Under the pieces are notes generated by a model. It did no database searches and was not told the origin of the DNA. It saw only the letters and a list, made by a program, of their open reading frames with translations. This document shows positions 669 through 64,000 of a stretch of DNA of 64,000 nt, one piece after another. The translations under genes were made by a program, and so were the position numbers. This DNA is from Thiothrix sp. (lineage in GTDB: Bacteria > Pseudomonadota > Gammaproteobacteria > Poriferisulfidales > GCA-002705445): contig JAYQIN010000002.1 of the NCBI GenBank assembly GCA_038141665.1, forward strand, positions 208,263 to 272,262, written 5' to 3'. Numbering within the stretch: the stretch's first letter is position 1; the number at the start of each line of letters is the position of its first letter.

Positions 669-1680
669 TACTATATATAAAACTATTCTTACATTAAGTG
701 GTTTGATAATAATATTTGCTGGTTTAAAAACTGCTGATAAAATTATTGTTCCTTTTTTTCTTTCTATGTTTCTAGCATTATTATCATTTCCATTATTAAA
801 ATATTTTCAATCTAAAAAAATAAATACTCCTTTTTCAGTTTCTCTAGTATTAATAACTATTGTTTCTATAAGTCTTAGCATAGCTGCTTTGATAGGAACT
901 TCCTTGAATAGCTTTAGAAAATCTTTGCCTACTTATAAAGAAAAATTAACAAGTGAGATTGATAGCATTGTTTTAACTTTTGAGAGATATAATATTGATA
1001 TAGATTCAACTTTTTTATATGAATATGTGGATCCAAATTTTATAATACAATCTGTAGCAAACACTCTCAGTGCTTTTGGAAATGTTTTAACGAATTATTT
1101 TTTAATACTCTTTATCGTGATGTTTACTCTTCTTGAAGCTGCAGGCTTTTCTAATAAAATTAAATTGGCCTTTAAAAACAGCGATAAATCAATAACAAAT
1201 TTTCACACATTTAGTGAAAATATGAACAAGTATCTTACAATTAAAACAATTGTAAGTTTTATCACTGGCATTTTAATATATTTATCTTTAATGGCTTTAG
1301 GTATAGATCATGCGGTCATGTGGGGTTTAGTTGCTTTCTTTCTAAACTATATTCCAAACATTGGCTCAATTATAGCTTCAATACCTGCAATAATTATTGC
1401 TTTTATTCAATTTAACGCTTTATATGCTGTAATTGTGGCAATAATATACCTTTTAGTTAATGTTGTAATGGGAAGTATTATTGAGCCAAAATATCTTGGC
1501 AAAGAACTAGGGTTATCAAGTCTAATAATCTTTTTATCATTAATCTTCTGGGGCTGGCTTTTAGGACCAGTTGGGATGCTATTATCGGTTCCGCTAACCA
1601 TGATTATGAAAATTGCTTTAGAGAGCAATGATGATACTAAATGGATTGCAATTTTACTAAGCAGAAATATTAGTAAGTAA
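652..1680 (+). CDS. AI-2E family (PerM/YhhT-like) membrane transporter
   Basis: 342 aa polytopic membrane protein with an AI-2E-type core (FLNYIPNIGSIIASIPAIIIAF...). Its start overlaps the nhaA stop. Confidence 0.7.
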   Translation: MQSKNNTIYKTILTLSGLIIIFAGLKTADKIIVPFFLSMFLALLSFPLLKYFQSKKINTPFSVSLVLITIVSISLSIAALIGTSLNSFRKSLPTYKEKLTSEIDSIVLTFERYNIDIDSTFLYEYVDPNFIIQSVANTLSAFGNVLTNYFLILFIVMFTLLEAAGFSNKIKLAFKNSDKSITNFHTFSENMNKYLTIKTIVSFITGILIYLSLMALGIDHAVMWGLVAFFLNYIPNIGSIIASIPAIIIAFIQFNALYAVIVAIIYLLVNVVMGSIIEPKYLGKELGLSSLIIFLSLIFWGWLLGPVGMLLSVPLTMIMKIALESNDDTKWIAILLSRNISK

Positions 1681-2272
1681 TACTATTTTTTGAAAAATCA
1701 TTACATATTTTTTTTAATTTATAAAAGTTGTACTTAGATACTATAGAAATTTTTTGGTTTGTAATGAATTTATACTTTAAAAAATCTTTATCTACTAAAT
1801 CTTCTTTTAAAAAGTAACTATTCAAATACTTTTTGCTATTAAATTTAACTGACTTGACCAGTAATAAAGGTGAATTTATTTTGTTAGCTATAGCTAGGGC
1901 AATAGAATCAGAGGTTGAATCCCAATTTTTTGATACTTTCAGATCATCAACATCTTCAATAGAAGGAATCCAAACTAATAATTTTCTTTTTTTTTGATTA
2001 TTTTTAATGCTATCAAGTGAATCTATCTTAGAAAAATTTTTTAAATAAGCAGAGTGATCTATTGTTAATTTTCTCATTGCTTTAATCGCTAACTGATGAG
2101 CCTTGTAATCGTCATAATTTTTTTCTTTTTGAGCTAGTCTAATTTTATCAGCATGCTTCCCTCCACCAAATATTAAAATAAAACTACTGTTAAATTTTAG
2201 CTCAATAGCTCTTATCCATTTTTTTATATATATAGTTGATTGTAAACTTCCGCCTAACTTTACTACTACCAT
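1670..2272 (-). CDS. Amino-acid-kinase-family protein (aspartate/glutamate/uridylate kinase fold), COG2054/MfnE-like small-molecule kinase
   Basis: N-terminal VVKLGGSL glycine-rich kinase motif, followed by FGGGKHADKIR. The 200 aa length fits archaeal-type MfnE-like kinases. Its start overlaps the pabB stop by 7 nt. Confidence 0.55.
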   Translation of the reverse strand: MVVVKLGGSLQSTIYIKKWIRAIELKFNSSFILIFGGGKHADKIRLAQKEKNYDDYKAHQLAIKAMRKLTIDHSAYLKNFSKIDSLDSIKNNQKKRKLLVWIPSIEDVDDLKVSKNWDSTSDSIALAIANKINSPLLLVKSVKFNSKKYLNSYFLKEDLVDKDFLKYKFITNQKISIVSKYNFYKLKKICNDFSKNSITY

Positions 2273-3609
2273 GTAAATTCACCATTTGAAAAATACTTAA
2301 TGAAAATAGAAACTTTTTCTAAACTTTCATAATATTCGTCCTCGGGATTAGAATCATGCACTATTCCTCCGCCTGCAGAAAAACTTAATTTATTTTTATG
2401 CATCATAATTGTTCTAATACATATATTTGTATCCATATTGTTATTTTCATTAAAGTATCCTATAGAGCCACAATACACACCTCTTTTTCTTTTCTCTAAT
2501 TCACTTATAATCTCCATTGATCTTTTTTTTGGCGCGCCTGTTATTGAGCCTCCTGGAAAACATGCTTCTAAAATATTTATAGATGTATTATTTGATTCAA
2601 GCTTTCCTCTAATAGTGCTCACCATGTGGTGAACAGAAGCATAGGATTCAATATCAAACAGTTTTGTTACCTTTACTGAACCAAGTTGGCAACATTTACT
2701 TAGATCATTTCTTAGTAAATCAACTATCATAAGGTTTTCAGATATATTTTTTTCATCATTTTTTAAGATTTTAATTTGATTTTGATCAAGCAAGGCATCT
2801 TCTAGTCTCTTTAGAGTGCCTTTAATAGGCTTTGTTTCAACAATATTTTTATTTACAGATATAAATCTTTCAGGAGAAGAGCTAATTATATGTTTTTTAT
2901 TAAAACTCATATAAGCGGAATAAGGCGCAGGATTAATTTTTCTAATATCTTTGTATGTGTCCCAGGGTTTGCCTTCATAATTCGCAGTAAACTCTTGGGA
3001 ATAATTTACCTGATAACAATCACCGTTTACGATATAGTTTTTGATTTTTTTAACATCTTCAATATATCTAGCTTTAGACGTATTTTGTCTAAAGTTAGAA
3101 TATGTATTGCTATTTATATGATCTTCAATAATAGTATTTTTATCTGAGAACCTCTCTATAATTTCATTAGTCAAATCATTTGGATTTTTAAAAATAATAT
3201 GAGTGATTTTTTCTTCATGATTTACAATTATTACCCAATCATAAAACCCAACAGCAATATCAGGAAAGTCTTCATCATTATTTTCATAATTATTTAATGA
3301 ATCATAGCCAAAGTAACCAATCATTCCAGATGTAAAAGGGAAATCTGTAATATCTGAATTTAGAGAAAAATACTTTTTAATTATATCAAAAGGATTGTCA
3401 TAAAAAGATGACTTCACATCATCCTTCTCTAAGGTAACGTTATTTCCAATACTAGTAATTTTAATATATGGATTACATGTAATAATGTCGAATTTACCAA
3501 ACGAGCCTGAATCGCTGCAACTGTCTAAAAACACAAACCAATCATTATTATTAAGAAAATCACCATATATACATGAATTTTTATGATATTGTATTTTAAC
3601 TTTATTCAT
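2266..3609 (-). CDS. pabB: Aminodeoxychorismate synthase component I (PabB-type chorismate-utilising enzyme)
   Basis: 447 aa with a TrpE/PabB chorismate-binding domain. The PIKGT motif carries the lysine diagnostic of ADC synthase (anthranilate synthases have PIAGT). The C-terminal GGGIVHDSNPEDEYYES signature is present. Confidence 0.8.
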   Translation of the reverse strand: MNKVKIQYHKNSCIYGDFLNNNDWFVFLDSCSDSGSFGKFDIITCNPYIKITSIGNNVTLEKDDVKSSFYDNPFDIIKKYFSLNSDITDFPFTSGMIGYFGYDSLNNYENNDEDFPDIAVGFYDWVIIVNHEEKITHIIFKNPNDLTNEIIERFSDKNTIIEDHINSNTYSNFRQNTSKARYIEDVKKIKNYIVNGDCYQVNYSQEFTANYEGKPWDTYKDIRKINPAPYSAYMSFNKKHIISSSPERFISVNKNIVETKPIKGTLKRLEDALLDQNQIKILKNDEKNISENLMIVDLLRNDLSKCCQLGSVKVTKLFDIESYASVHHMVSTIRGKLESNNTSINILEACFPGGSITGAPKKRSMEIISELEKRKRGVYCGSIGYFNENNNMDTNICIRTIMMHKNKLSFSAGGGIVHDSNPEDEYYESLEKVSIFIKYFSNGEFTW

Positions 3610-4652
3610 AAAATAATATTTTTATCTTCAAAAAAATTTTTAACAACTAATGCTGCTGTAAAATGCTTATATAATATATTTTTATCAATATTATTATTTA
3701 AAATAATATTTTCACTTTCAATCGAGAGATAATTTAAGCTATATTTTTCTGAAAGATCTTTAATCAAAAAACCACCTTCTCCAATTGAAGTTAATGTAAT
3801 TTTCTCTAAATTATTGCCAAGTAAAAAATTTATTTTTTCAAAAATAATATCAATAAATATCTCTTTTATACTACAGCTTATTTTTATAATTTCTTGCTTC
3901 ATATCTTCTTTATAATCTAAACCTATGGATCTTGCTAACCTTTTGTAAGAATTTTCAGCAGTATAATCTAATTTATCGGATCCTACATATTCAAGATCAC
4001 TGAAATCAATATCATTTGTTAAATTAAAAACATCTCCAGTTGTTGAAAAAACCTCATTTACTACAGAGACTTCTTTAGACATAAATTCTAACTTATCCAC
4101 CAACATGGCTATAGGTGTTCGCACCACTCCAGCATAAAAAAGTGTATTATTTATTAATCTTTTGTGATCATTTATATTATCTTCTAAATTCATATTTTTA
4201 TAGACTAAATCAGTAGTTGTTGAGCCTATATCTATAGCAAGGTTAATGTTAGTTAAGTTGTTTACAAATTTTGCAGTGAGCATCCAATTAGTTGAAAAAA
4301 GTTTAGCTGGATTTGCAACAGCATCATCATAGTATAAATATTTATCAGAATTTGTATAAAAAACTTTTTTTCCTGCTATATGTAGATTACAGTTTTTCAA
4401 AATTGACTGCATCGCGGAAATTCTATTATCAAAGTTATCACATGATTCGGCAGTTATCGTAATAAAATTACTAATATTATAATTTTTATATTTTTTAGAC
4501 ACCTCATTAAAAATACTTTTAATATTATCAAAGTCATTCCAAATATTTATATTTTTACACTTTACATCTATGATATTAAAATGTTGATTGAAGACACAAA
4601 ATTTTGTGTTTGCGCCACCAATATCCCATCCTATAAATATATTACTTTTCAT
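3606..4652 (-). CDS. Hydantoinase/oxoprolinase-N-terminal-like ASKHA protein, of the type annotated as H4MPT-linked C1 transfer pathway protein and MfnF-like
   Basis: N-terminal IGWDIGGANTK and a second DIGSTTTD phosphate-binding motif typical of the ASKHA fold. The ~350 aa size matches. ATGA overlaps on both sides indicate translational coupling. Confidence 0.5.
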   Translation of the reverse strand: MKSNIFIGWDIGGANTKFCVFNQHFNIIDVKCKNINIWNDFDNIKSIFNEVSKKYKNYNISNFITITAESCDNFDNRISAMQSILKNCNLHIAGKKVFYTNSDKYLYYDDAVANPAKLFSTNWMLTAKFVNNLTNINLAIDIGSTTTDLVYKNMNLEDNINDHKRLINNTLFYAGVVRTPIAMLVDKLEFMSKEVSVVNEVFSTTGDVFNLTNDIDFSDLEYVGSDKLDYTAENSYKRLARSIGLDYKEDMKQEIIKISCSIKEIFIDIIFEKINFLLGNNLEKITLTSIGEGGFLIKDLSEKYSLNYLSIESENIILNNNIDKNILYKHFTAALVVKNFFEDKNIIL

Positions 4653-5623
4653 TTTGAAATATTTAATGTTATTAGTTTATTATTAGAAATTTTAAAATTA
4701 TATTTATTATTAAATATAGTTAGTGGATTTTTCCCTATACTTTCTTTTAATCCTATATATGAAGTTGTTAATCTTGGATTAATTTCTAAAAAAATAATAT
4801 TATTATTTTTATCTAAAATAGCATCAATACCTAAAAACCCGGAAAAACCTTCAAGGTTTGACAAGATGCTATCTGCAAAAATCTCAAAATTTTTGATCAT
4901 ATGGTTATATTTGCCAATAATAATTTTATCAAGATATATTTCATATTTTGATGAATAGCTATATATTTGCTCATTAATAGAAAGAATTTCTAGCTTACTA
5001 TCTTTCGCTAAGATATTTAAACTTACCACATTTCCAAATATGAAATCTTGAAAAATATGTTTATCTGTTATTTTATCTATGTTTTTTTCCAATTCACTTC
5101 TATTTTTGAAAATAAACAAATTTTGAGCACCTAACCCATCGTTTACTTTAGCAACTATACTTCTATTTTCTGGAATTTTTTTATAATTTTTATGTGTTCT
5201 TACAAGATATTTATTCGAATTTTTATTTAATATTTTGTTTAGATTAATCTTATTGGTTGAGTTATAAATGAATTCGCTACTACAATTTAGTGTTTCTATA
5301 TTTTCATGCTCAAGAAATCTTGTAATATCATACATCATATTATTTTCTTCTGGTGTTAGAATAAGAACCTTATCGTTTGTTTTAATATTATTTGCTATAT
5401 CTTTAGATATATCATATTTATAATTTCTATAAAAATGATTATATTCATTGAGTAATTTTTTATTTTTTTTATTAATCAACAGTGATATCTTTGAATTATT
5501 ATATTCACAACTTAGATCTTTAACTATAGAATCAATGATTAATTTAGCTTCATTAAAAATTAACGGCGAGGAGTCATGCTTTACATGCTCGCCAAAAAAA
5601 TATTCGTAAATTAATATGTTCAT
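4649..5623 (-). CDS. ATP-grasp superfamily ligase (COG2232/MfnD-like carboxylate-amine ligase)
   Basis: C-terminal GIDAILDKNNNIIFLEINPRLTTS matches the carbamoyl-phosphate-synthase-like ATP-grasp motif, and a GLGAQN glycine loop is present. Length is 324 aa. Confidence 0.55.
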   Translation of the reverse strand: MNILIYEYFFGEHVKHDSSPLIFNEAKLIIDSIVKDLSCEYNNSKISLLINKKNKKLLNEYNHFYRNYKYDISKDIANNIKTNDKVLILTPEENNMMYDITRFLEHENIETLNCSSEFIYNSTNKINLNKILNKNSNKYLVRTHKNYKKIPENRSIVAKVNDGLGAQNLFIFKNRSELEKNIDKITDKHIFQDFIFGNVVSLNILAKDSKLEILSINEQIYSYSSKYEIYLDKIIIGKYNHMIKNFEIFADSILSNLEGFSGFLGIDAILDKNNNIIFLEINPRLTTSYIGLKESIGKNPLTIFNNKYNFKISNNKLITLNISK

Positions 5624-5629
5624 AATTTT

Positions 5630-6304
5630 ATGAAATTAATACCTGCATTAGATTTGAAAAATAACAAAATTGTTACCTCATCAATTGGCAACAAGCGTGA
5701 ATATCAAGAAATATCATCAAAATTAGCCCCTTCATCAGACCCTTTAAGGTTCTTAGATTATATCCTTTCACTATATGATTTTAACACAATATATCTAGCA
5801 GATTTAGATTCAATTAAAGGATTTAATGCTGAAAATTTTCTTATCTCGGAGATATTGCAAGAACACAAAAATATTACGTTTATTATAGATAACGGGGTCA
5901 GATTATATTCCCAACTTAATGCTTATAAGTATAGTAATTTTACTCAGATTATTGCAACAGAGACATTTAAGGAATATCAGCTTGTAATAAATGAAGAATA
6001 TAATAATTATATACTTTCTTTAGATATTATTAATAAAAGAATTATTTGCAAGAATAATCAATACAAAAAATTAAAGCCAGAAAAAATTATATTAATGGAC
6101 ATTGATAGTATTGGAAAAAAATCTGGAATCAATTGTAAAAACATTGATTTACTAGGTAATATTTTTCCGAGATCGAAGATTATGCTAGCTGGAGGAATAA
6201 GTGGTAATGAAGATATTATTGAAGCTGAAAAAAAAGGTATTTCAGGAATAATATTATTAACAGCATTGCTGGAAAATAAAATTAATTATGAAAAAAATTT
6301 ATAG
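5630..6304 (+). CDS. HisA/HisF-fold (ProFAR-isomerase-related) TIM-barrel protein, COG1411-like
   Basis: N-terminal MKLIPALDLKNNKIV mirrors HisA IIPAIDLKDGKVV. Internal YLADLD, ILMDIDSIGKKSG and LAGGIS phosphate-binding elements are present. Histidine biosynthesis context is absent. Confidence 0.5.
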   Translation: MKLIPALDLKNNKIVTSSIGNKREYQEISSKLAPSSDPLRFLDYILSLYDFNTIYLADLDSIKGFNAENFLISEILQEHKNITFIIDNGVRLYSQLNAYKYSNFTQIIATETFKEYQLVINEEYNNYILSLDIINKRIICKNNQYKKLKPEKIILMDIDSIGKKSGINCKNIDLLGNIFPRSKIMLAGGISGNEDIIEAEKKGISGIILLTALLENKINYEKNL

Positions 6305-6922
6305 TTTAAATTTTTTTATTATTTCATCTATTATATCTTTTTGAACACTCATTTTGTCTTGAGTTGCATCAATAACCTTTATTCTTTTTTTATTAGAACT
6401 AGCAATTTTTATATAACCATTATAAACATCTTCAAAAAAATTATTATCTAGATTTTCAAATCTATCTTTTGTTTTATTTCTTGGAAACCTTTTCTTTGCT
6501 AATTTATGAGGCAAATCAAAAAAAATTGTTAACTCTGGAATGATATTATCTGTAAAATTATCAACTAATGTTTTAATTTTATTTATATTTACTTTTTTTC
6601 CATAACCTTGATAAGCATACGAAGCATCTATGAATCTATCACAAAGAACCCAATAACCTTCATTTAATTTTGGCACAATAATTTCTTTTATATGTTGATT
6701 TCTTATTGAGAATAATAATAATAACTCTGCTTCCGAAGATATAACTGATTTATTATTTAATAGTATATTTCTAATTGATTCGCCAAATTTTGTTCCACCC
6801 GGTTCACGTGTGCAATAAACTTTTATATTATTTTTTCTAAATATTGTTTTATATAATTTATTGTTGTTGTTTTACCAACACCTTCAATTCCTTCAAAGCT
6901 AATTAATTTTCCAGTTTTCATA
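6299..6922 (-). pseudogene. tmk: Thymidylate kinase with a frameshift in a T6/A6 homopolymer (probably a sequencing indel; functional gene expected)
   Basis: From ATG 6922 the frame reads MKTGKLISFEGIEGVGKTTTINYIKQYLEK (P-loop) and then stops. Adding one A to the run at 6831-6836 restores ...NNIKVYCTREPGGTKFGE... and joins it to ORF 6299-6676. This is the position expected in fabF-pabC-mltG-tmk synteny. Confidence 0.8.
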
Positions 6923-6924
6923 AT

Positions 6925-7920
6925 TTATTTTTGATATTTATTGACAGCTTTCAAATGATCTTTGTAGTTTTTAGAAAATATATGTTTTCCTTTATCATCT
7001 GCTACAAAATACAAGTACTTGTTTTTCTCAGGTTTACTTGCTGCTTTTATTGAGCTCTCTCCAGGAGAGCATATTGGAGTCCTGGGTAAGCCATCGATCT
7101 TATAAGTATTATATTCGTTTACAGTCTGTAAGTCTTTCTTTGTAATATTTCCTCCAAAATCCTTAATTCCATATATGACAGTTGGGTCAGCCTGCAACCT
7201 CATATTTTTATTTATTCTATTTATGAAAACCCCTGATATAATAGCTTTTTCTTCATCTATTGATGTTTCTTTTTCAATAATTGAAGCCATGATTAGCATT
7301 TCATAAGGAGATTTATATGGTAATGAAAAATCTCTGTTTTTCCAATATTTCATTAAAATATTATCCATATTTTTTACACACCTCTCTAAAAAACTATCTA
7401 TAGTTATACCAGAAGAGAATTTATAAGTATCGGGAAAACACGATCCCTCAGGTGAAAGATATTTTATTCTAGACGGAAAGATTTTTTTATAGTAATTTTC
7501 ATTTTTACTATGTTTTACTAGCTTGCTACCTATCAAAGTGTCAATAATCTTTTTATACGTAGAACCTTCATAAATAATCACTGTATCTTGTACAACTTTT
7601 CCATTAATAAATTTTAGGATCATCGTATATTCTGTTTCGTTTTTATCTATCAGATATTTTCCATTGTTAAATGTAGGATTTATATCAAATAAGTAAAGAA
7701 TAACTTTAGCTCTAAAGATGGAATTTAATAATTCTAACGACTTTAAATTTGATAAAGTTTTTGAAATACTATCACCTTGCTTAATTGTGTATGTACTTAA
7801 ATTTTTTGAATAAATATTTTTATTTAAAGAAAAATTTAAAAAAGATAAAAAAAGGAAAAAAAATATAAAAAAAGACAATATGAATATTTTAAATATAATT
7901 TTTTTTTTAAGATAATTCAT
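6925..7920 (-). CDS. mltG: Endolytic murein transglycosylase MltG (YceG)
   Basis: N-terminal TM segment and a YceG-like domain with GLPPTPIxxPG (here GLPRTPICSPG). The gene sits between pabC and tmk as in E. coli. Confidence 0.8.
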   Translation of the reverse strand: MNYLKKKIIFKIFILSFFIFFFLFLSFLNFSLNKNIYSKNLSTYTIKQGDSISKTLSNLKSLELLNSIFRAKVILYLFDINPTFNNGKYLIDKNETEYTMILKFINGKVVQDTVIIYEGSTYKKIIDTLIGSKLVKHSKNENYYKKIFPSRIKYLSPEGSCFPDTYKFSSGITIDSFLERCVKNMDNILMKYWKNRDFSLPYKSPYEMLIMASIIEKETSIDEEKAIISGVFINRINKNMRLQADPTVIYGIKDFGGNITKKDLQTVNEYNTYKIDGLPRTPICSPGESSIKAASKPEKNKYLYFVADDKGKHIFSKNYKDHLKAVNKYQK

Positions 7921-8722
7921 TATTTACTATTTTTATCAATTCTTTAATTAAATTATTTTTTTTATATTTTGTACTTGATATAGATTTTATATTCCATATA
8001 AGTCTGACTGAATTACAAAAAAACGCTGCATCATAATTATTTATGTCCTTTTTATTAATATATTTTTTTATGACGTCGTAATTATTTTTTTTTAAAAGAG
8101 TTATTAAAAAAGCTTTCATTACACCTTCTACACCCGATCTTTCAATTATTGGCGTATAAAATTTTCTATCTTTTATAAAAAATATGTTACTTGATATACC
8201 TTCGATTATATTATTGTGTGTATCACAAAGTATTAATTCGGGGAAATTTTTAGATAGCTCACTTGTTGCTAATACTTGTTCAAGTCTATTAGAGTGCTTA
8301 ATCTTTGATAGATTTTCATTTTCTGTTAGATTTTTTTTTGAAAATTTTGTTTTTATGCCATTATCTGTATATTCCTTTGGATATTTTGGTGCTTTACTTG
8401 TTGTTATTATGATATTGGGTTTATTGTTTACATTATCTATATTGTAACCTCTCCTTATTGCTGTTCCTCGTGTTACATTTATATTTAAGATGCAATTTTT
8501 TTCGTCGACTAGAGCTTTATCTATTTGTTTGCATAAAACACTTAAATCTAAATTAATTATTTTAAGTACTTTGCAGCCTTTTTTTAATCTATTTAGGTGA
8601 GATCTTAAATTATGAGGAATTTTGTTAATTACTAATATTGTTTCGAATATCGAGTCGCCGTATAAGAAGCCTCTGTCAAATATTGAAATACTTGAGCTAG
8701 GTTTTCCATTAACTAAATTCAT
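7907..8722 (-). CDS. pabC: Aminodeoxychorismate lyase (class IV aminotransferase fold)
   Basis: 271 aa fold-type IV PLP enzyme lying immediately downstream of fabF, the conserved pabC position. Confidence 0.7.
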   Translation of the reverse strand: MNLVNGKPSSSISIFDRGFLYGDSIFETILVINKIPHNLRSHLNRLKKGCKVLKIINLDLSVLCKQIDKALVDEKNCILNINVTRGTAIRRGYNIDNVNNKPNIIITTSKAPKYPKEYTDNGIKTKFSKKNLTENENLSKIKHSNRLEQVLATSELSKNFPELILCDTHNNIIEGISSNIFFIKDRKFYTPIIERSGVEGVMKAFLITLLKKNNYDVIKKYINKKDINNYDAAFFCNSVRLIWNIKSISSTKYKKNNLIKELIKIVNNELS

Positions 8723-17185: not shown

Positions 17186-18540
17186 CTAAAACTTTTTTAG
17201 CTCTTTTTCGGATAAATTAGTTTCCTCAAGGGCGATTTCAATAATAGGCTTCCCTGTTTTGTATGCTTTTTTAGCTATAAAAGCACCTTTTTCATAACCT
17301 ATAACTCTATTTAAGGCAGTTACTAATATTGGATTAGCATTAATAGATTTATTAACAATAGCTTCGTTAACTTTAAAATCTAGAATTGATTTTTTAGATA
17401 AACTTACTGCAGTATTTGAAATAATATTTATGCTTTGTACAATATTATAAGCAATAATTGGTAAAGTTACATTTAGTTGAAAATTACCAGTCTGACCACA
17501 AACCATAATCGTAGTATCATTGCCTATAACTTGTGAGCATGCCATTATTGCTGACTCAGGAATCACAGGATTAACTTTTCCAGGCATTATACTACTTCCA
17601 GGCTGTAAAGCATTTAAAGTTATATCAGAAATCCCAGATCCTGGTCCAGAGTTCATCCACCTCAAGTCATTTGAAATTTTAATTAAAGAAACAGCTAAAG
17701 ATTTTAAATGTGAACTAAATAGAACAATATCATCTTGTGAGCTTAAACCCTCAAATTTATTTTTTTTATCAGTATACTTAATTGTACTTTCCGCATTTAA
17801 CGATTTTATGCATTCTCTTGTAAATAATTTATGCGCATTAATCCCTGTGCCAACTGCTGTTCCACCTATGGGTAATCTTTTTAATCTCATAATACAAGTT
17901 TTTAAACTAGCCAAGTTATCATCTATTTGAGCTTTCCAGCCCGATATCTCTTGTCCAAAAGTAACTGGCATTGCATCCATAAGATGCGTTCTACCAGTTT
18001 TGACAACTTTATTTAGTTTCTTTGATTTTGTATTAAGATCTTTTGATAAAATATTTAAAGACGGAACTAACTTTGTTAAAGCCAAATTATAGGCACAATG
18101 ATTTATACCAGTAGGAATAACATCATTTGAACTCTGTGACATATTTACATGGTCATTTGGATGCACGTTTATTTTAAATTTTTTTTCGCAATGTTTGATA
18201 TAACTTCATTTACATTCATATTTGTACTAGTACCTGATCCTGTCTGAAAAACATCTACTGGGAAATGATCAACATCATAGAAATTAATTAAATACTTTGC
18301 AGATTTTACAATTGCATCGCTAATTTTTTTATCCAACAAACCTAATTTATAGTTAGCCTTCGCGGCAGCAATCTTAATTAATAAAATGCTTACAATAAAT
18401 TCTTTTGGCATTACTAAATCACTGATAGCAAAATTATCAATAGCCCTTTGCGTCTGTGGACCATACAAAGCATTTTTAGGTATATCTACTTTACCCATAC
18501 TGTCTTTTTCAATTCTGAAGTTATTTTTTTGATTTTTCAT
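17186..18540 (-). pseudogene. fumC: Class II fumarate hydratase with a frameshift in a T8/A8 homopolymer (probably a sequencing indel)
   Basis: ORF 18169-18540 gives the N-terminus through [15 protein letters not shown]...IAKKNLK and then stops. ORF 17186-18166 continues with HPNDHVNMSQSSNDV and GSSIMPGKVNP. Adding one A in the run at 18179-18186 fuses them into a ~455 aa FumC. Confidence 0.85.
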
Positions 18541-32431: not shown

Positions 32432-32895
32432 AGCTAATCATAAACAAAATAATACCTGAAAATAGAGCAGCAATAATATCGTCAAGCATTACGCCAAAAC
32501 TATTCTTAATTTTCTTATCTACTAATGAAATGGGAAATGGTTTTACAATATCAAAAAAACGAAAAATTATAAATCCAAATATAACATTTTTAATATTATT
32601 TTCAAAAAAAATCATAAAAATTAAATATCCAAATATTTCATCAATAACTATAGACTTATCATCTTTATCTAAAAAAATAGATTTTTTGTAGGAATAATTT
32701 AAAAGAAGGATAGAAGAAAAGAAAAAGTACTAATAACAAAAAAATATTTTCATATAATGTATTAAAAGATATAAGTTGAAATATTAAAACACCTACGAGT
32801 GTTCCAAATGTTCCTGGCATGTATTTACTTTTTCCTGAATAAAATCCTGTTAAAAATATATTTATTAATTTATTTTTCATTACAAAAATGCTCAT
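32421..32895 (-). pseudogene. pgpA: Phosphatidylglycerophosphatase A with a frameshift in an A7/T7 homopolymer (probably a sequencing indel)
   Basis: ORF 32665-32895 carries the PgpA N-terminus (MPGTFGTL). ORF 32421-32615 carries the C-terminus (FRFFDIVKPFPI, FGVMLDDIIAA). Removing one T from the run at 32671-32677 gives a continuous ...KIYFLDKDDKSIVIDEIFGYLIF..., consistent with an intact PgpA. The gene is in the conserved position after thiL. Confidence 0.8.
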
Positions 32896-33799
32896 ATTTT
32901 TTATTTATATCAATATCTAATAAATTTTCTTTATATTTAAAATTAATATTGTTATTTTTTGTTAATGTTCCTATTTCAAAAATTTCAATACCTAAATGCT
33001 TGCAAAGTGTATTTAAAGCTAAAGATTTTTGATTATTTACAGTAAATAAAAGTTCGTAGTCATCACCATAACTAAGTATTTCCTGCCATGTTATACTTTT
33101 GTTAATAATACTCTTTTGTAACTCTTCTTTAATTTTTATTTTATCAACTAAAATTTCAGCTCCTAGATTACTTTTGTTTGTTATTCTTTTTAATGCATCA
33201 AGTAAACCGTCAGACATATCTGTACAACTATTTGCAAAATCTGTAAGTATGACGCCAAGCTTATTTCTAATATTTGGTAAATGATATTCTTTATTTTTTC
33301 TGGCCATGAGACTTTCCCCAATAAAGCCTGATACAAATATTATATCTTCATCTTTAGCATTGCTCGTTAACATTATATTATTACTTGATGAATACCCTAT
33401 AAGTGTCATAGTAATGCTTTTAGGGCCGAATGTTGTATCTCCTCCAATAACTGCAACAGGAAAAACATCAAAGATTGTATTGTAGCCATTAATAATGTCT
33501 CTAATATATGTATCCTCAGGTTTTTCAATAGTAAGATTTATAAGTGCAAATGCTGGAACTGCTCCCATTGCAGAAAGATCGCTAATATTAGAGGCTGCAG
33601 AAATATATCCAAGTTCATATGGTGAAATATCATTGGTGAAATGTGTGTTTAAAACCATTGTATCAGTTGTAAAAATAAGATTTTCATCTTGTTTGGGGAA
33701 AATTACACTAGCATCTTCGCCAATTGGGGTTAAAACCTCCTCCCTAAAATTATATTTTTTAGAAATAAGATCAATAATATCTTTTTCAGAAATTTTCAT
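32870..33799 (-). CDS. thiL: Thiamine-monophosphate kinase
   Basis: AIR-synthase-related fold. The real start is probably the internal ATG (MKISEKDIIDL), giving a 4-6 nt overlap with the nusB stop. The ORF-track extension to 33937 overlaps nusB. Confidence 0.8.
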   Translation of the reverse strand: MKISEKDIIDLISKKYNFREEVLTPIGEDASVIFPKQDENLIFTTDTMVLNTHFTNDISPYELGYISAASNISDLSAMGAVPAFALINLTIEKPEDTYIRDIINGYNTIFDVFPVAVIGGDTTFGPKSITMTLIGYSSSNNIMLTSNAKDEDIIFVSGFIGESLMARKNKEYHLPNIRNKLGVILTDFANSCTDMSDGLLDALKRITNKSNLGAEILVDKIKIKEELQKSIINKSITWQEILSYGDDYELLFTVNNQKSLALNTLCKHLGIEIFEIGTLTKNNNINFKYKENLLDIDINKKYEHFCNEK

Positions 33800-33803
33800 A
33801 TGT

Positions 33804-34226
33804 TTATTTTTTGATATATTTATCAAGAAACGCATTAACAAATTTGTAACTATCTTGTCCGCCAAATTTATTTGCAAGCTTAACAGATTCTGCCAAAAGA
33901 ACCTCATTCGGAAATTTATTATTATATTTAATTTCAAATATAAAACATCTTATAATACTTAACTCTACATGATTTATATTTTCTATTTTTATATCAGAAA
34001 ATTCAGAGATATATTTATCAATATCAGAAATATTCATTATGACGCCATCAATTATATCTTTAAAATAATTATTATCGCATTTATCAAAATTTTCATCTTG
34101 CTCAAAAATTAAATATAAATCTTCGGCTTTGCAATTATTTATAGACCAAGAGTAAATTGCCTGCATAGATAGTCTTCGTGACCAAATATTGCGGTTATTA
34201 GCGCGCATAGCATTATTAACTTTCAT
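33804..34226 (-). CDS. nusB: Transcription antitermination factor NusB
   Basis: 140 aa lying between ribH and thiL, as in E. coli. Confidence 0.85.
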   Translation of the reverse strand: MKVNNAMRANNRNIWSRRLSMQAIYSWSINNCKAEDLYLIFEQDENFDKCDNNYFKDIIDGVIMNISDIDKYISEFSDIKIENINHVELSIIRCFIFEIKYNNKFPNEVLLAESVKLANKFGGQDSYKFVNAFLDKYIKK

Positions 34227-46765: not shown

Positions 46766-47280
46766 TATTTTAAGTTTGGTAATATTACTTTATTATAATA
46801 ATTTTCATCTATTGGTCCAACGTGTTTGTGAATTATAATTCCTTTTTTATCTATTAAAAAAGTTTCGGGAGCACCATAAACTCCAAAATCAATTGCAATA
46901 TTTCCTTTGTTGTCATATATATTATATTTGTAAGGGTTTCCTCTAACTTTCAACCATTCTAAAGCTGAACCTCTATTATCTTTATAATTTAAACCATATA
47001 TGTTGATAGTGCCACGTGAGTAAATATCTATTAAATGCTTGTGTTCTATACTGCATGCATAGCACCAGCTTCCCCATACATTAAGAATGTGCATTTCTCC
47101 AAGTAAGTCATTGTTATTAATTTTCTGATTATCAATTAAAGTGATAGATGAAAAAGTTGGCATTGCTTTACCAATCAAAGGAGATGGTATTAGCGTTGGA
47201 TCTTTGTTTAAACCACTATAAAGAAAGTATAGTATTACTAAAAAAATTAATATAGGTAAGACAGAAAGTTTATGAAGCAT
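46765..47280 (-). CDS. ccmG: Thiol:disulfide interchange protein CcmG/DsbE
   Basis: Thioredoxin fold with WCYAC and a GVYGAPETFLID motif. Confidence 0.85.
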   Translation of the reverse strand: MLHKLSVLPILIFLVILYFLYSGLNKDPTLIPSPLIGKAMPTFSSITLIDNQKINNNDLLGEMHILNVWGSWCYACSIEHKHLIDIYSRGTINIYGLNYKDNRGSALEWLKVRGNPYKYNIYDNKGNIAIDFGVYGAPETFLIDKKGIIIHKHVGPIDENYYNKVILPNLK

Positions 47281-49223
47281 TAGTAATTTTTTTTTCTATT
47301 TTATTTCTGCCAAATATACCAAATAAACCACCTAAAATCATTAATCCAACACCGTACCACAAGAATTGAATATATGGCTTATAATATATTCTTACAACCC
47401 ACGAATCTTTTCCAATATTTTCACCCAATGCTAAGTATATATCTCTGAAAAGACTAGAATCTATAGCAGCCTCTGTCATAACGTTTTTTTGAACACTATA
47501 GGTTCTCTTTTCAGGAAAGAAAGATACTAAATAATTATTATCTAAATAAGCATCAAAAATTCCAACCTGAGAAGTGTAATTTTTAGAAAATTTTGTTTGC
47601 ACATCAACAAATTTTATAGAAACATTGCTAATCATTACTTCTGAATTCTTATTCATTACTATTTCTTTCTGAATTGAATAATAATTACTTATAGTTATTC
47701 CAATAATTAGAACTCCAATACCTATATGTGATAAAAGATTCGCTAAAGATGATGCTGGTATATTAATAATTTTTTCTATAATTTTTTTGCCGTTTGAGAT
47801 CTTTGAAACTTGAAATATCTTTATAACAGAAGATAAAATAGTAAATACTGCTAAAAACATTGCAAGATATACAATAAGAATATCAGTTTCATAATATATA
47901 CTTAGAAATAAGTATGAAATTATAATTGAATAAAATAAAATATAACTAAGTTTCTTGACTAAAATTTTGTGATTTGATTTACTCCAACTGCTATATATGG
48001 CTGGAGACATAAGGAAAACTATTGGAAGTGTCAATGCCGAAAATATAAAATTAAAATATGGCGCTCCAACAGAAATTTTACCTAAATTTAACGAACTGGT
48101 AACTAAGGGATACAAAGTTCCAATTAATATTGCAAAAGTAGTAATTGTTAAAAATAGGTTATTCAATAAGAGTAAAAATTCTTTTGATGATACAGAATAT
48201 TGCTTATGAAATATTAAATTACGCGACTTTAAAAAATATAACGCTAATGAAGAGCCAATGATTGTTGTTAAAAATATTAATATGTAAAGACCTCTCTCGG
48301 GGTCATTTGCAAATGCATGTACAGAAACTAAGATTCCTGACCTAACTAAAAATGTTCCAAGCAAACTTAGTGAAAAGGTCAATATAGAAAGTAAAATACT
48401 CCAGTTAATAAATATTCCTCTTTTTTCAGAAACTATCAAAGAATGCAATAACGCAGTTATAGCTAACCATGGCATAAAAGATGCGTTTTCTACTGGATCC
48501 CAAAACCACCAGCCTCCCCAACCTAACTCATGATATGCCCACCAGCTTCCTAGAGAAATTCCAATTGTTAAAAACATCCATGATGATATCACCCATTTTC
48601 GTAACCATGATATCCATTCAATATTAATACTTCCATGTAAAAGAACGGAAATAGCAAACACAAATGGTACGCTTGTGCCCACATATCCTATGTATAACAT
48701 TGGAGGGTGTATTATTAAACCTGGGTCTTGTAAGAAGTGGGTTAAGGTCTCTTCCATTTAATGGAATAGGAAAAACTCTATCAAATGGGTTTGAACTAAA
48801 TAGTATAAATATTAAAAAAAATAATAATAAAAGACCCATTATAGATAACATGTCAACTATAAGTGTTTTGGGCATACTTTTAGAAAATATTGCTATTAAG
48901 GAACACCAAATTGACATAACAAAAACCCATAATAATATTGAGCCTTCATGTGCACCCCATACCGCAGAAAATTTATATACATTCTCTAAATTAATATTTG
49001 AGTTATTTGCAACATACCTTAAAGAAAAGTCATCAATTAAAAAGGCGTAAGCAAGAATAAAAAAAGAAGTAGCAATAAATATAGAAGTAATGTAGGAAAA
49101 GTTCCTGCAAAAAATAAATCTCGAGCTAATACTTATAGTATTTTTAAAAAAAATAAGAGCAAACATGCAAAATGAAAGTGAAGCTGAAATACTTAGAAAA
49201 ATATTACCTAATTCATTAATCAT
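47270..49223 (-). pseudogene. ccmF: Cytochrome c heme lyase subunit CcmF, interrupted by a 1-nt frameshift (probably a sequencing or assembly indel)
   Basis: ORF 48624-49223 has the N-terminus through ...NPFDRVFPIPLNGRDLNPLL. ORF 47270-48757 continues with QDPGLIIHPPMLYIGYVG and WGGWWFWDPVEN. The two frames meet at ctt-ctt-a-caa-gac (about 48730-48732), where one extra base breaks DLNPLLQDPGL. Confidence 0.85.
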
Positions 49224-60106: not shown

Positions 60107-60619
60107 CTAATTAATGATGGTTTTAAAAAATGAAGTGAATTCAGAGCTATCCCACTCTTTTTCACCTTCAATCTTGTAAATAATTTTACCGCTTCCATCA
60201 ATTAAAAAAGTTGTTGGTATAGCTTGAATATTCCAGTCTGAAAGCTCCATATTTTCATCTAATAATACGGGAAAATCAATAGATAAGGATTTATCAATAA
60301 AAAACTTTTCAATTACGCCTTTATTTTGTCCAATATTAATAGCTATCATTTTAAAATTACTAGTTTCCTTAAAATGCTCATTGAGGTTGTTTAGGGATGG
60401 TATTTCTTTTACACATGGTGCACACCAAGTAGCCCAGAAATTTATCAGTACAAATGAGTTTGAATAATCTTTTAAATTAATATAATTTCCCTTTAAATCA
60501 GGCAAATTAAAACTTGGATAATTATCTTCTTTTACTTTAGTCATTGGAGAATTTTTAATTTCAGAGCATGAAAATAAAAAAACTAAAACTAGAGGAAATA
60601 AATATAATACTTTTTTCAT
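60107..60619 (-). CDS. TlpA/ResA-like thioredoxin-fold thiol:disulfide oxidoreductase lipoprotein
   Basis: WATWCAPC active site. The likely start is MKKVLYLFPLVLVFLFSC (lipobox) at 60619, whereas the ORF track extends to 60649. Confidence 0.75.
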   Translation of the reverse strand: MKKVLYLFPLVLVFLFSCSEIKNSPMTKVKEDNYPSFNLPDLKGNYINLKDYSNSFVLINFWATWCAPCVKEIPSLNNLNEHFKETSNFKMIAINIGQNKGVIEKFFIDKSLSIDFPVLLDENMELSDWNIQAIPTTFLIDGSGKIIYKIEGEKEWDSSEFTSFFKTIIN

Positions 60620-60620
60620 A

Positions 60621-61955
60621 TTATTTATTATACCCCATATCCTTATCATTAGCCCAATTTGGGTCTTCTTTTGTTAAATCACCGACAGGTACGGATAATG
60701 CATCAGCAATTAAAATATTAATATTTTCTCCAACTAACGATTCTAAGAAAAACTTTAAATTCTCTTTTTCATCCATTGTTAAATTTAATTTTTTAATCTT
60801 TGGGCTAAGTAATTCATTGCTAAATCCTCCATTATTATAGAAATCTATTACTTCATCTAAATTACTAAAAATACCATTGTGCATATATGGTGCAGTTAAT
60901 GAAATATTCCTTAAACTTGGAGTTTTAAATAGCCATCGATGAGAGGGGTTTTCGGTCACCGAATATAAGCCCAAATCATTATTTTTTTTCTGTTGGTTTA
61001 CGCTACTGATTATATCATTGTCTACCTCTACATATTCGCCAGGAGCAAGTTGCACTGTCGTTTTATTCTTTTTATTAATACCCATGGATTCTGCGTAACC
61101 TACTCCAGTATTGTGCAATTTATTGTCAAAGAAAAGTGCTTCATTTTTATTAATAAGGTGACAGCTAGAGCAGTTGCCTTTTCCCACAAATATTTCAAAA
61201 CCTTTTTTTACCTTATCATTAACAGCATCCTTTTCACCTCCATAGAACCATTTATCAAAAGACGAGTTTCCTGATATCAATGATCGTTCGTAGCTTGCGA
61301 TTGCCTTACCAAATGTTTCCATATTTATTCCTTCTCCAGGAAAAGCATCTTCAAAAAGTTTTTTATAACCTGGTATTAGCTCAAGTTTTTTAATAGTGAA
61401 CCCAAATGATGGCATAGCCATTTCAGAATGTGCTAATACAGGTTGCCAAACCTGATTTTCTAACGAAAACTCTCTTGCATCATGAAATAGGAATTTATTA
61501 AAAGCAACATTTAATAAAGTTGGTGTATTTCTTAAATTGGACCTTCCTTCTATTCCTACTGCTGTCTTGATTTCATTACTAGTAAAACCTTGTTCAGGAA
61601 CATGACACATCCCACATGACATTGTGTTATTCAGCGAAAGCCTTCTATCAAAAAATAATTTTTTCCCAAGTTCAATTTTTTTTCTTGTTATTGGATTATT
61701 TTTTGGAATTACTAATTCAGGCAAGCCTAATTGTTTGATAGTTACATATTTTAGTAAGTCTGCTTTTTTTCCTTTTCTGTCACTTAAGCTTAAAGAGTTT
61801 GTTGTATAGGATTTTGATTCATACCCATCTTTATTGTCTCCAGGGCCTGAGTAGCTTGTATTTTCGCTTCCTACGGCTAACTTGCTGAAGAAAAGCAATA
61901 TTAGAAAAATTGAAAACTTATATCTGGTTATATTGTTAAAAAATGTCTCACTCAT
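60621..61955 (-). CDS. Di-heme cytochrome c peroxidase family protein (CCP/MauG-like)
   Basis: Signal peptide and two CxxCH heme motifs (CGMCH, CSSCH); 444 aa. Confidence 0.8.
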   Translation of the reverse strand: MSETFFNNITRYKFSIFLILLFFSKLAVGSENTSYSGPGDNKDGYESKSYTTNSLSLSDRKGKKADLLKYVTIKQLGLPELVIPKNNPITRKKIELGKKLFFDRRLSLNNTMSCGMCHVPEQGFTSNEIKTAVGIEGRSNLRNTPTLLNVAFNKFLFHDAREFSLENQVWQPVLAHSEMAMPSFGFTIKKLELIPGYKKLFEDAFPGEGINMETFGKAIASYERSLISGNSSFDKWFYGGEKDAVNDKVKKGFEIFVGKGNCSSCHLINKNEALFFDNKLHNTGVGYAESMGINKKNKTTVQLAPGEYVEVDNDIISSVNQQKKNNDLGLYSVTENPSHRWLFKTPSLRNISLTAPYMHNGIFSNLDEVIDFYNNGGFSNELLSPKIKKLNLTMDEKENLKFFLESLVGENINILIADALSVPVGDLTKEDPNWANDKDMGYNK

Positions 61956-62655
61956 TCCCTAATAATAGAGTTTTTATGTCGTTTATCAATAGATCTGGGT
62001 GAAGAAAATCTACATTGTATACATTTCTTATAAGTTTTTTGTCGTCTATTAAAAAGACACGCAATAAATGTGACTCTACTCCTGCATAACTACCATCATT
62101 ATTATACTTTCTTATAACTGGTTGGTCATAACTCTCGAGAATTGGTTCTAGACTATCTAATGAATTTGTAGTTAAAAAATCCCAATCAGCTTTAACATAA
62201 CTTAAATCTTTTCCATAAAGTTTCATTATTTCAGGAGTGTCGTAAAACGGATCAAAGCTTAAACTAATCATCTTTATTTTTGAAAGCATTTTTGGATTTT
62301 CTTTTAATTTTTCTTGAATTTTAAAAAAAACTGATGTTGCAAGCGGACAACCATTTGTATCAGTACAATTACTATATATGAAGCTCATTAATGTAATTTT
62401 GCCATCCATTAACTTATGTAAAGAGTTATTTTTACCATTTTCTTCTACAATTTTTCCATCTCCTGCTTCTCTTATATTATATAAACTATACGTACCAGGT
62501 AACGGAAGTTCGTATCCCAAATTGTCTCTCCAGCCTAAGGCTAAATTATTTCTTTCTTCTTTAATAAGATTTCTTTCTTGCTCTAGATCTTTGGAAGCAA
62601 AGACTAAGTTGCTAATTAATACTATTGTAATTGTAATTTTTAAAAAATTTTTCAT
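61948..62655 (-). CDS. SCO1/SenC copper chaperone-like protein
   Basis: Signal peptide and a thioredoxin fold with CxxxC-type motif (FIYSNCTDTNGCP), cf. SCO1 YTHCPDVCP. Confidence 0.7.
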   Translation of the reverse strand: MKNFLKITITIVLISNLVFASKDLEQERNLIKEERNNLALGWRDNLGYELPLPGTYSLYNIREAGDGKIVEENGKNNSLHKLMDGKITLMSFIYSNCTDTNGCPLATSVFFKIQEKLKENPKMLSKIKMISLSFDPFYDTPEIMKLYGKDLSYVKADWDFLTTNSLDSLEPILESYDQPVIRKYNNDGSYAGVESHLLRVFLIDDKKLIRNVYNVDFLHPDLLINDIKTLLLGNE

Positions 62656-62668
62656 AATTATTATTGAA

Positions 62669-62697
62669 AATAAAAAAGGCTAACCAAAGTTAGCCTT
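62669..62697 (-). terminator. Rho-independent terminator downstream of mtoX
   Basis: On the minus strand a perfect 9-bp inverted repeat AAGGCTAAC-tttgg-GTTAGCCTT is followed by TTTTTTATTTT, 30 bp after the mtoX stop. Confidence 0.6.
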
Positions 62698-62727
62698 AAT
62701 TTTATCACCTTATTAGTAAACTTTAAA

Positions 62728-64000
62728 TTACTTATCTAATAATGTTACTTCTTTTTTATTATTTTCGCTTTTACTTGAATATAAAGAATATGCGCCAAAT
62801 CTCATTTGATGCGCTCTTCCTAATTTTTCTTTATAAAAGTCTATTGTCCATTTGTGAGACAATTCTAAAGACTCTTCATCCCATTCATAAAGTTTAACCC
62901 ACTGCTCATCTGCTTCTCCTGTTTTATCCCAATTTCCTAGAAGCGATGTAGAGAAATATGCTCTTTTCCCATCCCAACTTTGTGAAATCATATTTACTTG
63001 AGAACCAATTGTTTCTTCATATTTTTGAACAGGATTAAATGGATCTGAAATATCAAAGTATCTAGCTTTGCCATCCATAAATGTGTCTACCCAAAGCCCT
63101 TGATCATCAGCTGTTATTGAGATATCAACAGGCAATGGAACTTTAGAAGCGTCACCTATATCAGCTACAGCTTTACCTTGCCATTCGCCATTATCATCTT
63201 CATATATTAACCAGATTTTCGATGTAAGTGCTGTTGTTGTAAAACAGTAGTTATTATTTGCACCCCACGCACATCTTATTTCTAATGGTGCTCCTGGAAC
63301 ATCGATAACTTTTTTAGGTTTTCTTGTATGTAAATCCCAAACTACCATTGTATTTCCAAACCTTTTCATAGCTTCGCCATCTTGCAGCATTTGTCCGAAA
63401 TCCATCATGTAATTTGACCATCCAGTAAACGAGGATGTTAACATTACATTTCTTCTAGGTTGTACACGAACGTCATATCCATAACCATCAGCGTATTTAC
63501 CTTCTTTCTTAGCACCTCTTAGATCGCTGGCTGTTGGCAACCAATGAGTCGCAATAAACTCACCTTTACTATTATATTCTGCTAATGCAGTTCTCCCGCC
63601 GTTATCTTTATTGTTTGATAACCCAGATACCATTATTCTTCCTGGTAAGGCATAGAAAGTATGAGGACCAACAACTCCACCTGTTTTCTCAACAAAATCA
63701 GTAATTACTTTGTGTAAAGTTGGCTTTCTTGGGTCTGTATGGACATCAAAAATAAATATTTTATTGCTGTCTAGACCACCAGCCCACAAGTAGTGTCTAT
63801 CATCGCTCAATCCGGAGTGATGAGCTTCATTTCTTCCGCCAACGGAAAGAACACTTACAACTTTTGCGTAAGTTTTAGATTTTGGATTAACATCAATTGT
63901 AACTAATTTGTCCTGTTCATCACCAAGGCCTTCAACACCCAAAGTCCAAACATAAACGTAATCCTCTTGACCGACGATTTTTGCCATATATGGTGACATA
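62728..64000 (-). CDS. mtoX: Selenium-binding protein family (SBP56) methanethiol oxidase; N-terminus beyond window end
   Basis: >420 aa matching SBP56/MTO throughout. The Met at 63999 sits at the window edge, so the true start and signal peptide lie beyond the window. Confidence 0.8.
   Translation of the reverse strand, partial: MSPYMAKIVGQEDYVYVWTLGVEGLGDEQDKLVTIDVNPKSKTYAKVVSVLSVGGRNEAHHSGLSDDRHYLWAGGLDSNKIFIFDVHTDPRKPTLHKVITDFVEKTGGVVGPHTFYALPGRIMVSGLSNNKDNGGRTALAEYNSKGEFIATHWLPTASDLRGAKKEGKYADGYGYDVRVQPRRNVMLTSSFTGWSNYMMDFGQMLQDGEAMKRFGNTMVVWDLHTRKPKKVIDVPGAPLEIRCAWGANNNYCFTTTALTSKIWLIYEDDNGEWQGKAVADIGDASKVPLPVDISITADDQGLWVDTFMDGKARYFDISDPFNPVQKYEETIGSQVNMISQSWDGKRAYFSTSLLGNWDKTGEADEQWVKLYEWDEESLELSHKWTIDFYKEKLGRAHQMRFGAYSLYSSKSENNKKEVTLLDK

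Follow-up and report, generated by a model that had tools for sequence, protein, structure and literature searches.

A probable cofactor-supply module of the tetrahydromethanopterin/methylofuran pathway in a streamlined marine gammaproteobacterium

A stretch of 64,000 nucleotides from a bacterium catalogued as Thiothrix sp. (contig JAYQIN010000002.1 of assembly GCA_038141665.1), called here the window, carries a compact cluster of five genes. Four lie on the minus strand and encode, in transcription order, an MfnD-like ATP-grasp ligase, an MfnF-like protein, component I of aminodeoxychorismate synthase (PabB) and an MfnE-like kinase; the fifth is divergent and encodes a TIM barrel related to HisA and HisF (Table 1). 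We propose that this cluster, or module, is the sub-island for cofactor synthesis of a bacterial pathway that oxidises formaldehyde through tetrahydromethanopterin (H4MPT) and methylofuran (MYFR), in a streamlined marine gammaproteobacterium of ~1.1 Mb and 28% GC, a reading to which we assign a probability of about 0.85. The GTDB order GCA-002705445, whose name appears in the lineage of the window, has been described as having 1.1-Mbp genomes, complete tetrahydromethanopterin pathway gene sets and an expressed SBP56 (Francis et al., PMC8371827 and its supplement). Three traits agree with this order and point to it circumstantially: a genome of ~1.1 Mb at 28% GC, an H4MPT pathway and an SBP56/MtoX gene. 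The order is a sister lineage of SAR86 (bioRxiv 2024.03.17.584874), and was recovered chiefly through Nanopore-hybrid assembly of Great Barrier Reef samples (bioRxiv 2025.05.13.653689). SAR86 itself was weighed as a candidate, but its genome paper is silent on methanopterin and formaldehyde; TMED127/Methylaequorales did not fit either, being alphaproteobacterial with genomes of ~1.5 Mb.

The identity of the proteins was analyzed with Pfam and NCBIfam profiles, taking the NCBIfam curated cutoffs as the equivalog threshold. The ATP-grasp protein matches ATP-grasp_3 (PF02655, E=1.7e-22) and, as its best NCBIfam model, MfnD_Meth (NF040722, E=1.3e-24, 87 bits vs a cutoff of 400); its nearest sequence match in the PDB is 3df7, a putative ATP-grasp protein, and its gene is syntenic throughout the related loci. 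The MfnF-like protein is recognized by TIGR03123, 'probable H4MPT-linked C1 transfer pathway protein' (E=7.8e-57, 192.9 bits vs a cutoff of 244.1), and by MfnF (NF040623, E=1.4e-35, 123 bits vs a cutoff of 520). A clade profile of this protein matches PDB 3c0b, a 'conserved archaeal protein', at E=1.2e-46, and its motifs DIGGANTK, TAESCDNF and DIGSTTTD are kept clade-wide. The kinase has MfnE as its sole NCBIfam match (NF040622, E=4.5e-15, 56 bits vs a cutoff of 300), together with AA_kinase (PF00696, E=1.9e-4) and PDB 7qrh (E=7e-7). The structures 3c0b, 3df7 and 7qrh are all uncharacterised archaeal or structural-genomics relatives. The best-matching named models for three of the proteins are those of the archaeal enzymes MfnD, MfnE and MfnF (Methanocaldococcus jannaschii; MfnD is MJ_0815). 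The likeness to the archaeal system includes the match to the archaeal homologue structure and the adjacency of the ATP-grasp, COG1548 and amino-acid-kinase trio in many distant metagenome loci, whereas the scores of the window proteins are far under the equivalog cutoffs and the trio of those distant loci contains no pabB. In methylotrophs the homologues of MfnE, MfnF and MfnD are known as Orf21, Orf9 and orf1 (PMC8141765; PMC5020050). The profile searches agree with the families that an earlier note, made from the window alone, had named for the five genes (MfnE-, MfnF- and MfnD-like proteins, PabB and a COG1411-type barrel), and these calls are right at the level of homology, not of equivalog.

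The barrel probably belongs to a separate group. Its best match is TIGR00734, 'HisA/HisF family protein' (E=1.1e-26, 94.1 bits, under the cutoff of 179.85), it carries the His_biosynth signature of the (beta/alpha)8 fold (E=2.4e-19), and a sequence search of the PDB returned HisA and HisF. As in HisA (ProFAR isomerase) and HisF, an aspartate is kept at strands beta-1 and beta-5 (D8 and D132), along with the C-terminal GG phosphate-binding motif; D8, D58, D87, E111, D132 and G188-G189 are invariant over eight lineages. It differs from these enzymes in its probable family and in having genes for one-carbon (C1) cofactors as neighbours. The protein does not qualify as HisA itself, with 63 bits against the equivalog TIGR00007 (cutoff 228.95) and no his genes adjacent.

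PabB, on the other hand, passes its curated cutoff (TIGR00553, 380.7 bits vs 328.4; Chorismate_bind E=4e-95) and has at residues 261-265 the motif PIKGT, whose lysine we take as the feature that tells PabB from TrpE. The gene of aminodeoxychorismate lyase, pabC, adjoins fabF in the slot fabF-pabC-mltG-tmk, 3 kb from pabB, and this synteny is kept across the clade; no pabA was seen in the window. PabC is the functional partner of PabB. The earlier note had taken the proximity of pabC as an argument against an ordinary pabB, which does not hold, since PabC needs a PabB. Both the above-cutoff PabB with its PIKGT lysine and the position of pabC resemble the E. coli branch, where the order fabF-pabC-mltG-tmk is the same. 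The differences are that pabB is here embedded in a cofactor operon and that its product would be expected to feed methanopterin besides folate. Methanopterin synthesis begins with beta-RFAP synthase, an enzyme that acts on p-aminobenzoate (pABA).

Support for the proposed function comes from other bacteria. The nearest homologues beyond the AT-rich clade of the window, at ~30% identity, form the same five-gene module in other Proteobacteria. In a marine gammaproteobacterium of 37% GC (loci L010/L011), the module, identical in order and orientation, comes directly after purL-GHMP kinase (RFAP-synthase-like)-MtdB-ATPgrasp-Mch-RimK-CitG-Fae-PTPS. Its GlyA is 80% identical to that of the window, and the downstream synteny AI-2E-leuS-lptE-holA is common to both. 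In L046/L047 the module directly follows Fae-PTPS. A Methylophilaceae metagenome-assembled genome (L014) has the identical module by itself, followed by a gene for pterin-4a-carbinolamine dehydratase, and the module is also present in another gammaproteobacterium (L012). The link of these families to H4MPT/methanofuran cofactor clusters, which the earlier note had drawn, is correct. It had already been described that pabB is commonly associated with H4MPT biosynthesis genes in methylotrophs (PMC3615186).

A profile scan of metagenomes returned at least 80 loci among the matches listed, and the following statements concern those matches. In the loci of the AT-rich clade and in L046/L047, pabB comes right after the MfnF-like gene wherever downstream sequence suffices. 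More distant loci (24-31% identity, 27-73% GC) have the ATP-grasp, MfnF-like and kinase genes adjacent and no pabB, often with the HisA-like gene divergent upstream; insertion of pabB was found only in loci of Beta/Gammaproteobacteria. The trio with the barrel is therefore widespread. Among Beta/Gammaproteobacteria with an H4MPT pathway, the form of the module that contains pabB is the standard one. Among the distant loci L049-L104, the barrel lies divergent and upstream of a pabB-less MfnD-MfnF-MfnE-like trio in, for instance, L051, L056, L067, L076, L082, L086 and L089. This placement is a hint that the barrel, itself uncharacterised, acts together with the enzymes of methanofuran/methylofuran synthesis.

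The cluster of the window can thus be compared with the orf1(mfnD)-orf9(mfnF)-pabB-orf21(mfnE) island in the 'archaeal-like' H4MPT/methylofuran gene clusters of methylotrophic Beta/Gammaproteobacteria (L014, L010/L011). Both have the same five families in the same order and orientation, with a divergent HisA-like gene across a spacer of 0-6 nt (as in L003, L011 and L014) and pabB between the MfnF-like and the MfnE-like genes. In both, fae, mtdB, mch and RFAP synthase are encoded in the genome, as read for the window clade in the member described below. The differences are the protein identity of the window module to those versions, just 23-43%, the distance of ~43 kb between its module and the fae-mch block, with the module now placed between tmk and the AI-2E transporter gene, and the lack of the kinase gene in some of its sub-lineages.

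The window itself contains no homologues of fae, mch, mtdB or RFAP synthase (tblastn over the 64 kb). The earlier note had remarked that no fae, mch, mtd or fhc genes lie nearby; the remark stands for fae, mch and mtdB within the window, and fails as a sign of a missing pathway, since relatives from the clade carry the C1 genes on the same chromosome, beyond the bounds of the window. A search with the Mch of L011 found a large set of marine Mch proteins of 319 residues. One of them, P0344, is on JGI contig Ga0117928_1000001 (597,803 bp, 28% GC; locus L021), whose glyA region is collinear with window 28-49 kb at 73% nucleotide identity. At ~447-459 kb this contig carries purL-RFAP synthase family-MtdB-ATP-grasp-Mch-MptN/RimK-like-CitG-Fae-PTPS-holB, with Mch (402 bits), Fae (232) and the RFAP-synthase family protein (186) all above their NCBIfam cutoffs. 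By collinearity its module is predicted at ~400-405 kb, and the C1 block would be ~43 kb away; the link between module and mch on this contig rests on that collinearity with the window, not on a direct match to the module. Extrapolated to the window, the block would lie ~41-49 kb beyond its left end. Clade contigs reach ~1.1 Mb, as seen in the GlyA search. An intact Mch (P0558) is on a contig of 1,097,920 bp, the same size as that of L015 (masthead_4__contig_18692_pilon), which is 96.2% identical to the window in nucleotides over 21 kb, and an Mch fragment (P0536) and a module protein (P0482) each lie on a contig of 1,103,783 bp and are linked by that equal size. The C1 block is probably also present in the very genome of the window.

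The junctions suggest how the module became separated from the block. In L011 PTPS abuts the HisA-like gene and in L014 tmk abuts holB; in the window tmk abuts the HisA-like gene, and in L021 (6984-15448) PTPS abuts holB. A single inversion apparently separated module and block in the window clade, because one such event, starting from the L011 arrangement and the canonical tmk-holB junction, would yield the junctions tmk-hisAF and PTPS-holB. The clade Fae (L021, 12775-13299) is 88.5% identical to that of L011 and reads PNTMMFNKVTI in place of PNTLMFNKVTI, the latter being also the reading of M. extorquens Fae. When the metagenome contigs were scanned with a DNA pattern for NTLMFNKVT, a motif of Fae, biased towards AT-rich codons, there was no match, a false negative, because the clade Fae has NTMMFNKVT and the L010 control codes Leu as TTG.

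The earlier note had favoured a different product: the Mfn-like trio would build, independently of H4MPT, an undescribed conjugate from an aryl amine derived from PabB (aminodeoxychorismate or pABA), be it a carrier of C1 units or a modified folate or pterin. The embedding of pabB in the operon, where it is flanked by the MfnF-like and the MfnE-like gene with overlaps of 4-7 nt, would fit such a product, as would the divergence of the proteins under the equivalog cutoffs and the fact that the window has no gene for tyrosine decarboxylase or mfnB. Overlapping junctions are, however, the norm genome-wide. Methylobacillus flagellatus belongs to Methylophilaceae, a family in which the pabB-containing module is also found. 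This bacterium makes ordinary methylofuran of the tyramine type and has Mfla_1650 as MfnD homologue (PMC8141765). Moreover, the module touches fae and neighbouring H4MPT-pathway genes in L010/L011 and L046/L047, and the clade chromosomes encode RFAP synthase, a consumer of pABA. With pABA a known methanopterin precursor and the pabB module standard among H4MPT-bearing Beta/Gammaproteobacteria, we regard an undescribed conjugate as very unlikely.

A second explanation is a non-orthologous folate branch in which the kinase, the coupling enzyme and the ATP-grasp protein replace FolK, FolP and FolC; they would pyrophosphorylate hydroxymethyl-dihydropterin, couple it to pABA and glutamylate the product. 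The chemistry would be formally parallel, as in both cases a CH2-O-PP donor reacts with an aryl nucleophile before glutamate is attached, and pabB and pabC are in or near the cluster. Yet no Pfam or NCBIfam match points to pterin-pABA coupling, the homologues have been assigned to methanofuran/methylofuran synthesis (PMC8141765), the trio occurs without pabB in distant loci, and the module co-occurs with H4MPT genes. We consider it the least probable of the explanations weighed here.

Within the clade the module is conserved. Marine contigs of 26-29% GC recurrently have the order fabD-fabG-acpP-fabF-pabC-mltG-tmk, HisA-like, ATP-grasp-MfnF-like-PabB-kinase and AI-2E transporter-nhaA-leuS. The neighbourhood conservation that the earlier note had asked about is thus found: order and orientation of the module repeat in dozens of independent contigs. 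Over them the identity of the module proteins to those of the window starts at 97% and drops to 23-43% in the remotest lineages carrying pabB (97% to 33% for the MfnF-like protein across AT-rich marine contigs). The five-gene arrangement is conserved far beyond chance. Module protein identities of 45-72% are similar to those of PabC and MltG of the same genomes and lower than that of FabF. An independent Illumina contig (L033) is 98.9% identical to the window over 4145-7248; within the module the two are set apart by 16 synonymous and 6 non-synonymous changes, which indicates purifying selection. A scan of genome contigs for relatives gave a single locus, L001, with 33% identity. Exact look-ups of the MfnF-like protein and the ACP of the window had no match, and the comparisons were made with relatives. 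To judge by its gene order and its ccmA-H system, the organism is an AT-rich gammaproteobacterium, not a member of Pelagibacterales.

This conservation has to be weighed against the possibility that H4MPT-dependent metabolism has been lost, that the genes are decaying relics and that pabB is kept for folate only. Loss of the pathway has a precedent in planktonic Methylophilaceae (PMC5020050), the kinase gene has gone from the module in several sub-lineages, and FabF and the AI-2E transporter evolve more slowly than the proteins of the module. But neither the window nor dozens of contigs of this clade of 1.1-Mb genomes show damage to the five open reading frames (ORFs), the ratio of 16:6 points to purifying selection, residues of catalytic type are invariant, and clade members have intact Mch, Fae, MtdB and RFAP synthase. 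A remnant appears to us even less probable than an undescribed conjugate.

On the proposed reading, a sub-island supplying the cofactors of formaldehyde oxidation, we infer the following mechanism from homology and gene context. PabB and PabC would produce p-aminobenzoate, which beta-RFAP synthase would condense with phosphoribosyl pyrophosphate to start methanopterin synthesis, part of the pABA going also to folate. The MfnE-like kinase would convert F1-P into F1-PP (furan-methyl pyrophosphate), and the MfnD-like ATP-grasp enzyme would ligate glutamate to tyramine or tyrosine, giving glutamyl-tyramine or glutamyl-tyrosine. The MfnF-like enzyme would then join F1-PP to the glutamyl-aryl unit to form the methylofuran core, to which extra glutamates could be added by the MyfA- and MyfB-like ATP-grasp enzymes of the other block. 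The HisA-like barrel would catalyze some step in the same cofactor pathways. With the finished cofactors, Fae, MtdB, Mch and Fhc, whose genes would lie at other sites of the chromosome, would oxidise formaldehyde. A plausible source of the latter is the methanethiol oxidase of the window (62728-63999), an MtoX/SBP56 protein (NF052453, 736 bits vs a cutoff of 650) whose ORF runs to the window end. It is part of a minus-strand cluster at 60107-63999 that encodes MtoX, SCO1/SenC, a di-haem CCP/MauG-like protein and a thioredoxin/AhpC-like protein.

Several observations weigh against this reading: (i) the MfnE-, MfnF-, MfnD- and HisAF-like proteins are all under the NCBIfam curated cutoffs; (ii) the four proteins other than PabB are only 23-36% identical to the versions of L011, L012 and L014; (iii) the HisA-like barrel of the module is without any known biochemical function; (iv) several sub-lineages of the clade lack the gene of the MfnE-like kinase in the module, so that the trio need not be complete at this locus; (v) for the species of the window itself the link to mch rests on equal contig sizes, not on read sequence; and (vi) mfnA, mfnB, mfnC and fhcABCD were not located in the clade, no dedicated test having been made for FhcABCD and MfnB. 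The kinase gene is missing after pabB in L001 (10200), L031, L032, L034, L038, L040 and L045; in kinase-less loci of the AT-rich clade pabB directly adjoins the convergent AI-2E transporter gene. Two options that do not exclude each other would go beyond the known pathway. The barrel could be a missing enzyme of methanofuran/methylofuran synthesis, because it stands divergent beside MfnD-MfnF-MfnE in the clade, in Methylophilaceae and in several pabB-less distant loci. The MfnD/MfnF-like enzymes could also use an aryl amine derived from PabB, producing a methylofuran variant, because no gene for tyrosine decarboxylase came to light in this highly streamlined clade, some members of which can dispense with the MfnE-like kinase. 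We regard these options, singly or together, as unlikely.

The arrangement of the locus is extremely compact (Table 1). ORF map and direct reading of the sequence coincide with the earlier note as to the five genes, their overlaps and the divergent barrel. The overlaps at the minus-strand junctions are 4, 4 and 7 nt (ATGA, ATGA and ATGGTAG), and at its outer ends the cluster runs into convergent genes, with an overlap of 11 nt at the AI-2E transporter gene and of 6 nt at tmk. Overlapping start and stop codons do not set the cluster apart; they are the norm across the window, ~96% of which is coding, with overlaps at 22 of 46 same-strand junctions and gaps of 0-10 nt at 14 others. The four minus-strand genes would be co-transcribed. 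As only 6 nt part the divergent start codons, the promoters of the divergent pair must fall within the neighbouring coding sequences. Rfam and tRNA scans gave no match relevant to the cluster.

Table 1. Position of the module genes, the divergent spacer and pabC in the 64,000-nucleotide window
Feature	Position	Strand	Basis or remark
ATP-grasp ligase, MfnD-like (orf1-type)	4649-5623	minus	PF02655; first gene of leftward operon
MfnF-like/Orf9-type protein, COG1548, ASKHA fold	3606-4652	minus	TIGR03123
PabB, aminodeoxychorismate synthase component I	2266-3609	minus	TIGR00553
MfnE-like/Orf21-type kinase, amino-acid-kinase fold, COG2054	1670-2272	minus	NF040622
HisA/HisF-related TIM barrel, divergent	5630-6304	plus	TIGR00734 (best match)
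Spacer, 6 nt, between divergent start codons	5624-5629	none	sequence read directly
PabC, aminodeoxychorismate lyase	7907-8722	minus	PF01063 Aminotran_4, E=8.9e-42

Other features of the window were recorded. Three housekeeping genes are split by frameshifts: tmk (6299-6920, break near 6831), fumC (17186-18540, break at 18166-18169) and ccmF (47270-49223, break near 48624-48757). The break in tmk falls in a poly-A run, where the 98.9%-identical Illumina contig has one extra base, and the 96%-identical Nanopore/Pilon contig of L015 has similar broken genes. The splits look like homopolymer errors of long reads, not pseudogenes. The ORF of thiL (32870-33937) has a long N-terminal extension and overlaps nusB (33804-34226) by ~130 nt; the extension is an artefact of choosing the first possible start, because thiL of relatives has only 307-309 residues. 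The molybdenum-cofactor genes moeA, moaE, moaB and moaA are kept (27425-30681) in a genome of ~1.1 Mb, and we speculate that they imply an important molybdoenzyme, possibly a formate dehydrogenase acting downstream of the H4MPT pathway.

As a discovery the cluster carries little weight, since it is most likely what one would expect to supply cofactors to a known pathway, and earlier work has reported that pathway for the lineage. It documents very divergent proteins of the MfnD/E/F and TIGR00734 types that lie under annotation cutoffs, in an abundant marine lineage of low GC that is under-sampled by Illumina sequencing. The retention of the cofactor module and of the core H4MPT block in a genome of 1.1 Mb fits a central role of formaldehyde oxidation in these bacteria.

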